A DNA stretch of 22,029 nt from a virus. Taxonomy: Duplodnaviria > Heunggongvirae > Uroviricota > Caudoviricetes. This document shows, piece after piece, positions 3,664 to 5,524 of the stretch (position 1 is the stretch's first letter; every line of letters starts with the position of its first letter). A model generated the notes under the pieces. That model was not told the origin of the DNA and made no database searches. It saw only the letters and a program-made list of their open reading frames with translations. The stretch spans positions 1-22,029 of IMG/VR virus record IMGVR_UViG_2531839665_000007; one strand, 5' to 3'. The position numbers and the translations under genes were made by a program.

Positions 3664-4284
3664 ACCCCGTCTCCCGTTATCCGGAAGCTGACAACAATAA
3701 AAAGCCACCAGTTAATTCCTGATGGCCCTGATGCATAAACGTCATAATACCTGACTGTTATGATTGACAATAATGATAATGTTTATATAGAAAGGTTCCC
3801 GATGTGTGTTACATATCATTTCTCCACGGGGAATATCCCCACGCCAGCGCAGACTCTTTTACCCGTTCTCTTCTGCGCTGGCTCTTTTTTATTATGCTGC
3901 TGCATTTACCTCTGGCACCAGGCTTTCTATCTCAACACAATACGTGGTACTTCTTGTAACCAATATCATAACGATTAATCGACATAGAATTTCTCCCGTG
4001 TACAGGAACAGAGTTAAAAAGCCGGAACCGGAATCAAATCACAGGATGACCATCTGCCAGTGGCAGGTCATAAAAAAAAGGCCGCGCCATGCGCAGCCAG
4101 AACTCACAAGGAAAATGATAGAAGGAAATAACATTAGTGATGTACGCATGGCGCCTCCCGCTAAGTTCTGCAATGATCAAACAGAACTCGCTACGTGCCC
4201 TTAAAACTCGATCATTTAGCCCCTCCAAGGAGGATTCACCATGCGGTTGGTTTTTTAATAAACAGTAAACAAAAAAGTCAAGAA

Positions 4285-4443
4285 TTATTCATTCTGTTCT
4301 TTCATCATCGGCCACAGCAATACCACAATGCCGCAGACCAGAGCGCCATCAGTCAGTACCAACATTATCCTGCTGGTGAAATCCATCATCACCATCACTA
4401 AAAGCAGGATCACAACAGCAAGCAGACACAGTTTATAAAACAA
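4285..4443 (-). CDS. Possible small hydrophobic protein (2 predicted TM segments)
   Basis: Hand-translated minus-strand ORF ...LCLLAVVILLLVMVMMDFTSRIMLVLTDGALVCGIVVLLWPMMKEQNE; start ambiguous (TTG at 4443 or ATG at 4395); no clear RBS. Confidence 0.25.
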   Translation of the reverse strand: MFYKLCLLAVVILLLVMVMMDFTSRIMLVLTDGALVCGIVVLLWPMMKEQNE

Positions 4444-4528
4444 TGTTCAGAAAACGCATTCAGCATGCCTAAGGTTCTATTCCTACGAATAGCCAACTTG
4501 CAACTTAAAATATTATTTATGCAGCCAA

Positions 4529-5287
4529 TTAAATTCTGGTCCTTACAATATCAACCTGAAGATTCTTATCTTGTGCTGATTGATAAATGACAAACCTTTT
4601 ACTACCTGCATTGAAAGAAGTAGACAAAACCAGACAATTATCATAACGAGCAAGAACATAATACCAACCATCATTATAATTAATCATTTCATATTCTTTC
4701 TTAAACTGTGGTTTGTAATATCCTGTCAGAAATGAAAAAAGCCAAAAATATGCCACAAAAGCAATCATCACAATCTCAAAAAAATGTTTTTTTATAAATG
4801 GCTTATCATAGAAGCATGATACCGATAAAAATCGCCCATAAGATCTTATCGAAATTGTAACCGCCAGCGCAATCGCTGCTGACAGTAGCAAAAGAGGTAC
4901 CTGAATCTTCTGTCTCAATATAGAAAACTCAATAATTGCCGGCACAAACAATAATTCCACAGCAAAATAAAGGCGAAATACATTTAGCTCTTGCATAGAA
5001 TGTTTTCTTTTCACTGCGAAAAAGAATACAACACCAATACCCCAACCGATAAGAAATATAGCAATGACGATAACTGCAAAAAATAAACTTCTGGCAACAT
5101 CATCAACACCTGCACCTACAATCCACCATGGGAAGCCGTAGTAAAAAGAAGTACCCCATCCATAGAAATAAGCACTCCCCCATCCAAGGCATCCCATGTA
5201 GGCAATAAAAAGTGAAGAACTCCTGAGCAGCGCACCATCCTTCATAACCACCCCAATACAAGATGATAACATTGGCTTACAACTCAT
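4529..5287 (-). CDS. Multi-pass membrane protein of unknown function (moron between pR' and the lysis genes)
   Basis: 252-aa ORF with several hydrophobic helices (FFAVIVIAIFLIGWGIGVVFFFAV, LLLLSAAIALAVTISI, IVMIAFVAYFWLFSFL) and a C-terminal soluble tail; visibly AT-rich compared with flanking lambda-like genes; same strand as Q and S; true start may be an internal Met. Confidence 0.5.
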   Translation of the reverse strand: MSCKPMLSSCIGVVMKDGALLRSSSLFIAYMGCLGWGSAYFYGWGTSFYYGFPWWIVGAGVDDVARSLFFAVIVIAIFLIGWGIGVVFFFAVKRKHSMQELNVFRLYFAVELLFVPAIIEFSILRQKIQVPLLLLSAAIALAVTISIRSYGRFLSVSCFYDKPFIKKHFFEIVMIAFVAYFWLFSFLTGYYKPQFKKEYEMINYNDGWYYVLARYDNCLVLSTSFNAGSKRFVIYQSAQDKNLQVDIVRTRI

Positions 5288-5453
5288 AACAAAAGCAATT
5301 CAATGCCGTCAAGAGGTTACAGGCTAAAAAAACTCTATTACATTGCAGTCAGCATGTTTACTACACAAATACAATTCAGAGCATAAAAACTACTCGGCGG
5401 CAGGTTATTGAGACTCATCAATGACATGTAAAAAACGCCCATTATTGGTGTCA

Positions 5454-5482
5454 AGTTTCCCCAAAGTTATTCAAAAAGTCAA
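5454..5482 (-). promoter_or_regulatory. pR' late promoter / qut region (lambda-like)
   Basis: Minus-strand sequence TTGACTTTTTGAATAACTTTGGGGAAACTTGAC parallels remembered lambda pR' (TTGACTTATTGAATAAAATTGGGTAAATTTGAC); -35 TTGACT is intact, the -10 position reads GAAACT. Confidence 0.5.
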
Positions 5483-5524
5483 TATTATGCCGTTAATATG
5501 TTGCCATCCGTGGCAATCATGGCG

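Follow-up and report, generated by a model that had tools for sequence, protein, structure and literature searches.

The virus record IMGVR_UViG_2531839665_000007 comprises 22,029 nucleotides, and this whole stretch, here called the window, carries its late genes on the minus strand, where they are read from high to low coordinates. In that direction they follow one another as NinG, phosphatase, Q, a cargo interval, holin, lysozyme of the signal-anchor-release (SAR) type and Rz, an order with which the annotation of identical DNA in RefSeq genomes by the Prokaryotic Genome Annotation Pipeline (PGAP) agrees. The interval at 5524-3664 is very probably the standard cargo (moron) slot downstream of the late promoter pR' in a lambdoid prophage. 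A preliminary description of this interval recognised a multi-pass membrane-protein gene followed by about 860 bp poor in open reading frames (ORFs). We read the same DNA as a portable cassette that consists of tfpB, which is the membrane-protein gene, a small gene of the DUF3927 family and the Hfq-dependent base-pairing small RNA (sRNA) PasD1, whose intrinsic terminator closes the cassette; downstream of it we place an esterase remnant, the convergent sRNA EcOnc32, a terminator-like hairpin and a pinholin gene. The locus is essentially the same as that of prophage PP4 of enteropathogenic Escherichia coli (EPEC) E2348/69 and of prophage Sp3 of enterohaemorrhagic E. coli (EHEC) Sakai. The arrangement is thus one that has already been described, the window being a typical member, and our additions to it are small: the explicit scar of an esterase deletion, the strict linkage of a pR' allele to the cassette, a degenerate tR' terminator, and the equation of an Esr41-like sequence match both with EcOnc32 and with an EPEC RNA known as 'E2348C_1013'.

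The 207-aa antiterminator Q is encoded just outside the cargo (5525-6148, minus strand; Pfam PF03589 Antiterm, 4e-58; phrog_127; PGAP 'antitermination protein' WP_001235460/72) and sets the context for what follows. Alignment with lambda, phage 2B8 and EPEC PP4 places a lambda-like late promoter pR' at 5440-5482 on the minus strand, with a -35 element TTGACT (5482-5477) identical to that of lambda, a spacer of 17 nt of which 14 positions are shared with lambda, a -10 element GAAACT (5459-5454) in place of lambda's TAAATT, and a -10-like pause element AATAAT (5445-5440) compared with the pause-inducing AACGAT of lambda. The alignment with lambda is unbroken from the end of Q through pR', and homology stops about 20 nt past the start site. 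Of the parts of the lambda pR'/qut region, a lambda-type Q, a -35 and -10 pair with the Q-binding spacer, and a proximal pause element can be found in the sequence; if their roles are carried over from lambda, the spacer would correspond to the Q-binding region. The preliminary description was right about the GAAACT element, which it thought might alter promoter strength. The element is no oddity of the window: the pR' region is base-for-base identical in the window, in 2B8, a plaque-associated phage record, and in PP4, and the exact 33-nt allele is present in 67 IMG/VR contigs, compared with 43 for the lambda allele. In all 37 of the contigs that extend at least 2.5 kb downstream, the allele is followed by tfpB and the DUF3927 gene (20 of them share the esterase-deleted layout of the window and 15 have a full esterase gene). 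GAAACT is a normal, linked allele and no lesion.

Shortly downstream of pR', where an intrinsic terminator tR' would be expected, the window has none. At 5381-5410 (minus strand) there is a degenerate counterpart of the annotated tR' of phage 434, reading ACCTGCCGCCGAGTAG plus T5 where 434 (locus L003, 3478-3507) has ACCCGCTGCCGAGTGGGT plus T8; it did not qualify in a terminator scan of the late strand, which found no terminator-like site anywhere between 5440 and 4098. As the 434-type tR' is degenerate in this lambda-Q variant, the terminator of PasD1 is the first terminator-like site after pR'. These 30 positions are also where the mosaic cargo cassette meets its upstream flank, and the megablast alignment with 434 begins at position 5389 of the window.

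The gene tfpB (4529-5245, minus strand) was assigned from the ORF list, from PF27470 in its homologues and from a match of its product to phrog_1521 (2e-154). The 252-aa ORF at 4529-5287 on which the preliminary description was built does exist, and longer readings begin at 5272 or 5287; all 21 aligned full-length homologues, however, start at the position of the ATG at 5245, so the likely protein has 238 aa rather than 252 (PGAP places the start at 238 or 247 aa, depending on the genome). As had been noted earlier, the gene is AT-rich, forming a trough in GC content of 0.29-0.40 compared with about 0.50 in Q and in the lysis genes on either side. The local copies of Pfam, NCBIfam and PADLOC gave no match for the product. 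All 108 homologues retrieved from a collection of 5.8 billion proteins, including 100%-identical ones, carry precomputed Pfam PF27470, which gene-context tables name TfpB, and PGAP calls WP_001299184.1 an 'STM1630 family protein'. The family is small, with 56 clusters at 50% identity among 1.84 billion representatives, and centred on the Enterobacteriaceae, with members 23-32% identical in Pasteurellaceae and Neisseria.

An AlphaFold2 model bears out the multi-pass membrane topology. The first model, built from 22 close sequences, had a mean predicted local distance difference test (pLDDT) score of 63.6; adding the distant homologues from Pasteurellaceae and Neisseria raised it to 80.7, with a predicted template modelling (pTM) score of 0.73. 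The model has five long helices and a small five-stranded C-terminal beta domain of about 55 aa, and the hydropathy profile agrees, with hydrophobic stretches at four of the five helices. By the positive-inside rule, the N-terminus of this inner-membrane protein is predicted to be cytoplasmic and the beta domain periplasmic. A profile search against the sequences of the PDB found no related solved structure, and a fold search with the model found no match among solved or viral predicted folds and no other characterised family. The literature on 'TciB', 'DUF3927' and 'TfpB' likewise yielded nothing useful on function.

Genome contigs were scanned for the context of TfpB homologues, which gave six loci. 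A 45%-identical homologue in Yersinia lies behind a Q of the PF06530 type. The Salmonella orthologue STM1630 (locus L016, 3349-5717) lies next to sseJ, which encodes an effector of Salmonella pathogenicity island 2 (SPI-2) with Sif and GDSL lipase domains. STM1630 has its own mapped promoter, is induced in macrophages and shares its regulation with SPI-2 genes; deleting it produced no phenotype in macrophages. On plasmids of enterotoxigenic E. coli (ETEC; loci L020-L024, gene at 5001-5714), a 59%-identical homologue stands divergently beside eltAB and near the gene for the toxin STb, between insertion sequence (IS) elements.

The ORF-poor tail at 3664-4528, as it had been called, turns out to be well filled. 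Its first feature, at 4443-4285 on the minus strand, is a DUF3927 ('TciB-like') gene for a 52-aa small membrane protein with two helices by hydropathy. The match to Pfam PF13064 (3.4e-14, 53 bits against a cut-off of 25) places it within the family, it matches phrog_1470 at 2.5e-17, and it is annotated in E. coli genomes and in phages 434 and 2B8. The functional label 'TciB' of phrog_1470 and DUF3927 is an annotation only. The claim that the tail lacks convincing ORFs thus fails for this gene but stands for the remaining ~620 bp, in which we find no convincing protein-coding gene.

The second feature is the sRNA gene of PasD1, also known as EcOnc13, at 4072-4244 on the minus strand. All 173 nt from 4244 to 4072 are identical to the E2348/69 copy at NC_011601 1060260-1060432 (+), which Pearl Mizrahi et al. 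2021 (PMC8550237, Tables S6/S7, Fig S5) described as a 173-nt RNA that is Hfq-dependent on northern blots, has the seed UGUGAG and was detected with the probe CATGCGCAGCCAGAACTCACAAGG; the probe sequence is exactly present in the window. The seed lies at 4108-4103, just upstream of the 3' stem-loop, and the intrinsic terminator consists of a hairpin at 4098-4080 and a U8 tract at 4079-4072, a structure that was also picked up independently by the terminator scan and is annotated as a terminator in phage 434. The sequence traits by which a PasD RNA is recognised are therefore found here, namely sequence identity, the seed with its 3' stem-loop and poly-U, and synteny downstream of Q near the holin/lysozyme operon. 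For the identical sequence in EPEC, Hfq-dependent accumulation and pairing with targets were demonstrated by northern blot and by RNA interaction by ligation and sequencing (RIL-seq), and both PasD1 and PasD2 were validated (PMC8550237). In Sakai, the peak of EcOnc13 in Hfq crosslinking and analysis of cDNAs (Hfq-CRAC; 901332-901382, +; ~187 nt on northern; Tree et al. 2014, PMC4104026) falls inside the Sp3 copy of the element, the Sp3 tail being 99.7% identical to the window.

At gathering thresholds Rfam detects nothing in the interval. A permissive scan gives a full-length match to STnc100 (RF02076) at 4274-4069 on the minus strand, whose 37.5 bits (E ~1e-6) lie below the cut-off of 47, and PasD1 is a relative of STnc100 and not a member. 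This agrees with Zhu, Shabalina and Storz (bioRxiv 2026.05.13.724894), who described PasD sRNAs as structural relatives of STnc100 sited by Q, LpxR, sialate esterase and holin genes, and who mapped both their distribution and the frequent Esr41-like matches near them. In other prophages the slot after tfpB and the DUF3927 gene holds a bona fide STnc100 of 98-124 bits. We observed it in EPEC PP5 (locus L009, 1170-1359, 124 bits), where it follows a truncated DUF3927 gene, and in an Escherichia sp. prophage (locus L012, 4944-5160, 98 bits), where it follows tfpB. With STnc100 copies at the position of PasD, the two behave as alternative alleles of one slot.

Between PasD1 and the holin, the window carries at 3985-3892 (minus strand) a scar of a sialate O-acetylesterase gene of the SASA family (nanS-p type). 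Identity with phage 434 runs through PasD to the first ~30 nt of the esterase gene, is interrupted by a gap, and resumes over the last ~70 nt, the stop codon and the following hairpin. What is left in the window is the start codon with about nine codons (3985 to ~3961), fused to the last ~70 nt with the stop (~3960 to 3892); ~1.75 kb of the gene is missing compared with 434 and EPEC PP2, and no intact ORF of ~616 aa is present. The remnant begins MSINRYDIG.. where 434 has MSIKHYDVV.., and its C-terminus reads ..VEIESLVPEVNAAA against ..VEIESLMLEINAPAA in 434. From these translations, and from local alignments to the ends of the esterase genes of 434, PP2 and PP5, it follows that 3985-3892 is what a deletion has left of a nanS-p-type gene.

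An Esr41-like Hfq-binding sRNA (EcOnc32), whose gene is convergent with the late operon, occupies about 3801-3891 on the plus strand. The Rfam Esr41 model (RF02676) matches 3803-3892 over its full length, with a score of 32.3 bits (E 4e-4) that is far below the cut-off of 102 and leaves the RNA outside the family. The RNA folds into a small hairpin and an 11-bp GC-rich terminator followed by a T-run (z = -5.98); the terminator hairpin is at 3842-3883, and the T-run at 3885-3890 overlaps the stop region of the esterase. Through a gap-free alignment of 99.7% identity, window 3803-3892 (+) corresponds to Sakai 901578-901667 (-), which is the locus and strand of EcOnc32, an RNA of ~112 nt on northern with its Hfq-CRAC peak at 901574-901662 (-) in Sp3 (Tree et al. 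2014, PMC4104026). The RIL-seq reads assigned to 'E2348C_1013' in EPEC end at 1060613, which is position 3891 of the window. That RNA was always RNA2 of its chimeras, a position typical of sRNAs, with 263 chimeras for the entC 5' untranslated region (5'UTR), 537 for the nlpD-rpoS intergenic RNA, and others for the dnaK 5'UTR and an island RNA; its base mean was 2,064, with a 7.5-fold drop in Δhfq (log2FC -2.9) (PMC8550237). The 5' end lies within 3787-3803, and a scan offered TTGACA (3764-3769)-16-TATAGA and CTGACT (3751-3756)-18-GATAAT as candidate promoters. We also considered whether the element is a variant of PasA or PasC, and rejected this after finding no alignment beyond the shared terminator. 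A scan of the tail for sRNAs, as had been proposed at the outset, was thus rewarded with two Hfq-binding sRNAs, PasD1 and EcOnc32.

The last features of the interval and the lysis genes can be dealt with briefly. The scan found a terminator-like hairpin at 3695-3729 (minus strand; 8-bp hairpin 3729-3701 and T-rich tail), reading GCCATCAG-loop-CTGGTGGC and then TTTTTATTGTT. It lies ~35 nt upstream of the holin start, and phage 434 has an annotated terminator in the equivalent place (L003, 7121-7157, 45 nt before S), which suggests that the hairpin may separate the lysis genes from the cargo as a second barrier. The holin gene at 3448-3663 (minus strand) encodes an S21-type class II holin, a pinholin with the dual start MYQM (Phage_holin_2_1, 2.6e-32; PGAP class II holin), and is followed on the same strand by a SAR endolysin gene (3448-2951; PGAP rrrD) and then by Rz.

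How far this interval conforms to a moron can be judged from its composition, its placement and its terminator; the definition is said to go back to Juhala et al. 2000. The base composition departs from that of the backbone genes between which the cassette lies, the cassette is absent from lambda and is found paired with three types of Q, and it has its own terminator in that of PasD1. The suggestion that the membrane-protein gene is foreign-looking cargo positioned for Q-dependent late expression is supported, and the pR'-proximal slot is indeed the place that carries stx in Stx phages. Of 5,426 complete E. coli genomes, 561 match a query of 2.2 kb (3400-5600) with ≥80% coverage, several of them at 100% identity; a 576-bp core of the tail (3709-4284) reaches ≥80% coverage in 563 genomes, including those of Sakai (Sp3) and EPEC E2348/69. 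To speak of an insertion between pR' and the holin is consequently correct relative to lambda only, the arrangement being a common allele. The preliminary description had held that conservation of the interval in close relatives would tell against its view, and such conservation exists insofar as the interval constitutes an accessory module that is widespread and has been described before. The mosaic structure is evident from the matches of the window to phage 434 (5389-3961, 98.5%) and phage 2B8 (5600-3961, 98.3%), and from the finding that the cassette stands behind a Q82-like Q in 434, Sakai Sp3 and EPEC PP2 and behind a lambda-type Q in the window, 2B8 and EPEC PP4. The same cassette behind different types of Q implies a portable module that recombines with different late-control regions.

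The expression of this cargo in lysogens, which had been raised as a possibility, can be read from RNA-seq of EPEC under the activating condition (PMC8550237), where the tfpB genes of PP4 and PP2 are 98-100% identical to that of the window. For PP4, the base means were 6.0 for Q, 147 for the tfpB-like gene, 8,652 for pasD1, 2,064 for E2348C_1013 and 5.4 for the holin; for PP2, they were 69 for Q, 226 for tfpB, 37 for the DUF3927 gene, 11,017 for pasD2, 102 for the esterase and 3.5 for the holin. Lysogens thus transcribe the cargo with the lysis genes switched off, which is the behaviour that defines a moron and makes the name apt. Before tfpB, two overlapping candidate sigma-70 promoters can be placed at 5263-5312 (minus strand), the first from a conserved block and the second from a consensus scan: TTGACG (5312-5307) with an 18-nt spacer and TG-t-TATGAG (5291-5283), and TTGTTA (5292-5287) with an 18-nt spacer and TG-t-TATCAT (5271-5263). 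On ETEC plasmids, the 59%-identical homologue has retained upstream, despite unrelated flanks, the block that surrounds the first of these (CTCTTGACG...CTTTTGTTATG). A possible promoter of PasD1 has TTGACT at 4281-4276, 32 nt upstream of the 5' end of the RNA, followed by an A/T-rich -10 region. We infer these promoters, like those of EcOnc32, from their sequence.

In the lysogen, then, the cassette and both sRNAs would be transcribed, most likely from promoters of their own, with the terminators keeping the lysis genes silent. PasD1 would act through its UGUGAG seed on mRNAs that contain CUCACA, and EcOnc32 may pair with the entC leader and the RNA upstream of rpoS. After induction, Q-modified polymerase from pR' is expected, by analogy with the established biology of lambda, to read through the terminators of PasD1 and before S into S-R-Rz, which would make the cargo part of the late transcript as well.

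Several points weigh against this account. Promoter-like sites were no more frequent in our scan than in shuffled sequence. Expression is transferred from the PP4 copy (98.3% identical over the locus, 99.5% over the tail and 100% over PasD1) and from Sp3 (99.7% over the tail), and PP2, the second source of expression data, matches the window only through the cassette. The TfpB proteins of PP2 and PP4 are identical, and the two copies may therefore share RNA-seq reads. Moreover, the 5' end of PasD1 could stem from processing rather than from initiation, and as the lambda-Q variant has no convincing tR', read-through from pR' could feed expression in the lysogen. Taken to its end, this last point leads to a cassette with no promoter of its own, in which a weak pR' (GAAACT) that lacks a functional tR' transcribes tfpB and the DUF3927 gene constitutively as far as the PasD1 terminator; that terminator would then be the effective tR' and PasD1 a processed 3' end, comparable to StxS and to the 6S RNA of lambda. 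The late strand favours such a view, as it has no terminator-like site after pR' until that of PasD1 and the hairpin of the 434 tR' is degenerate here, and so does the linkage of the GAAACT allele to the cassette in 37 of 37 contigs. We nevertheless consider it quite unlikely. In PP2 the cassette lies downstream of an intact 434-type tR' and of a different Q, but its tfpB is expressed at 226 compared with 147 in PP4, and pasD2 is as abundant as pasD1. PasD is some 50-60 times more abundant than the tfpB mRNA, with the TTGACT -35 element lying 32 nt before its 5' end, and even without a pR', ETEC plasmids have the conserved promoter-like block ahead of tfpB. Read-through from pR' as the sole source of lysogen expression was ranked low on the PP2 data; as a copy that follows an intact tR' reaches at least the same expression, it is still simpler to assume separate promoters.

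The reading of the preliminary description, a single membrane-protein moron with ~860 bp of unexplained non-coding DNA and a protein that acts in exclusion or abortive infection or as a regulator of lysis, has in its favour that tfpB is AT-rich, occupies the pR' slot with the lysis cassette directly downstream, and is transcribed in lysogens; many prophage inner-membrane-protein morons do exclude superinfecting phage. We think it unlikely all the same. The tail is accounted for by the DUF3927 gene, PasD1, the esterase scar and EcOnc32, and can no longer be called unexplained. As for exclusion, abortive infection or lysis regulation, the searches of PADLOC, of folds and of families lend no support: PADLOC gave no match, the sequence search turned up no relative of solved structure, and neither a solved fold nor a predicted viral one matched. 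Homologues of TfpB, furthermore, also occur outside phages, beside sseJ in Salmonella and beside eltAB on ETEC plasmids, and these contexts, together with the SPI-2 co-regulation and macrophage induction of STM1630, indicate a role in interaction with the host at least as much as one in phage defence.

It is very improbable, in our view, that the tail is protein-coding after all, with either a 132-aa ORF on the plus strand or a small ORF within the PasD region, for a membrane protein or lipoprotein, as its real product. The former (3806-4204) runs antisense over PasD1 and contains EcOnc32 with its terminator; RefSeq/PGAP calls it a 'hypothetical protein' in hundreds of genomes, and Pearl Mizrahi et al. 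(PMC8550237) noted that E2348C_1013 is antisense to most of PasD1. It has no significant family match in scans of Pfam, NCBIfam, PHROG and PADLOC, and a strong terminator of the same strand lies inside it. As the assigned reads pile up at the 3' end of the sRNA and the ORF spans two sRNA genes, it is probably an artefact, a mis-annotation over them. In the PasD region, the annotators of 434 call a 62-aa 'putative membrane protein', and PasD1 itself (window 4150-4040, minus strand) has a strong Shine-Dalgarno sequence, GGGAGG-N4-AUG, leading into an ORF of 36 codons, which includes a lipobox-like LVSSGC and extends beyond the terminator; for the homologous 'STnc100_1' of EDL933, a ribosome-coverage value of 2.16 was given. 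A role of PasD1 as mRNA of a lipoprotein-like peptide was considered and rejected: the frame is not conserved, a 1-nt indel cutting it to 14 codons in PasD2, 434 and 2B8, and the sRNA terminates before any stop codon, whereas northern blots show discrete RNAs of ~173-187 nt and ~112 nt (PMC8550237; PMC4104026). With the frame broken and the 3' end of the sRNA inside it, we treat PasD1 as non-coding, with a small residual doubt.

What TfpB does can only be guessed from its being a lysogen-expressed prophage membrane protein. Our best guess is an envelope role in lysogenic conversion, possibly together with the DUF3927 protein, for example the exclusion of an incoming phage or colicin. That TfpB, probably with the co-transcribed DUF3927 protein, forms an uncharacterised envelope module of this kind, expressed from repressed prophages, is a tentative proposal which we put forward with low confidence. 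If it were true, the pair might be a new device for superinfection or colicin exclusion, or a factor in the interaction with the host; a role of the latter kind would explain why TfpB travels beside virulence cargo, in an Stx-type slot, with the genes for the toxins LT and STb on ETEC plasmids, and with sseJ in Salmonella.

The wider lesson is that 860 bp of a late region can look empty and yet be crowded, here with a gene of 52 aa, a pair of Hfq-binding sRNAs and a pseudogene scar. A reading based on ORFs overlooks such small features, and RefSeq still puts a probably spurious 132-aa ORF over them. Through PasD1 and the Esr41-like RNA, the prophage plugs into regulons of its host, namely the genes of the enterocyte effacement locus (LEE) and bfp, enterobactin synthesis and the rpoS leader. 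The membrane pair of TfpB and the DUF3927 protein is frequent in the prophages of EHEC and EPEC and linked to toxin loci.

Other parts of the window hold some further observations. A 590-aa AT-rich ORF (8526-10298, +; GC ~0.31-0.39) in the nin region runs in the opposite direction to the phage genes around it, has no Pfam match and is a 'hypothetical' protein (WP_001505174.1) to PGAP; it looks like another piece of foreign cargo. Just upstream of it, at 8146-8210, is a perfect (AAATAG)x10.8 hexanucleotide array, and between NinG and this ORF an HNH endonuclease gene is inserted (7384-8031, minus strand; HNH_3 and a weak AP2 domain). The lambda cIII thermoregulator element matches in full length at 18614-18672 (+) (Rfam RF01804, 88.5 bits), which confirms a lambda-like early-left region on the opposite strand.

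Among known systems, the closest is EPEC E2348/69 PP4 (E2348C_1011-1014), which has the same order of lambda-type Q, pR', tfpB, DUF3927 gene, PasD1, esterase scar, Esr41-like RNA and holin; it is 98.3% identical over 3.3 kb and 99.5% over the tail, and differs by scattered single-nucleotide polymorphisms, with no structural difference within the interval. Sakai Sp3 (ECs_0815-0818) shares the tail at 99.7% identity, with EcOnc13 (+) and EcOnc32 (-) on the two sRNA elements, but its Q is Q82-like and comes with a late promoter of its own, and lpxR lies upstream; the window has a lambda-type Q and pR' instead. Phages 434 (OL657226) and 2B8 (NC_049952) have tfpB, DUF3927 (annotated TciB) and PasD with its terminator at 98.3-98.5% identity to the window. 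Unlike the window with its ~90-bp scar, they keep a nanS-p-type esterase gene between PasD and the holin, followed by convergent sRNAs of the PasA/PasC type; the esterase gene is intact in 434, whereas in 2B8 an inserted mobile element splits it into two annotated ORFs. The two phages also differ in their late control, 434 having a Q82-like Q and a good tR', and 2B8 a pR' allele identical to that of the window.

More generally, Tree et al. 2014 (PMC4104026) already described a site downstream of pR' at which morons are tolerated, with convergent sRNA genes present in Sp3, Sp4, Sp5, Sp9, Sp10, Sp11, Sp15 and Sp17. The stx slot of Stx phages, with the sRNAs AsxR and AgvB, resembles the window in that its cargo comes right after pR', is expressed late in dependence on Q and has convergent Hfq-binding sRNAs on its 3' side. 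The window differs from it in having no toxin genes and no tRNAs (a tRNA scan of the window found none, and tRNA cargo like that of Stx phages is thus absent), and its sRNAs are PasD/STnc100-like and Esr41-like rather than members of the 51-60-nt anti-sRNA group. Esr41 itself (EcOnc14, encoded on SpLE1) shares with the RNA of the window the UUCUCCA-GGGG-hairpin core, the GCCAGC..GCUGGC terminator and the poly-U, and just as Esr41 controls iron genes, the window-type RNA pairs with the entC leader in EPEC; the RNA of the window, however, has a terminator loop that is 18 nt longer, a different 5' end, and a place in a prophage late region instead of SpLE1. Finally, Salmonella STM1630 is 46% identical to TfpB over its full length and has the same predicted architecture, but it is a chromosomal island gene by sseJ, with no Q, DUF3927 gene or PasD nearby.

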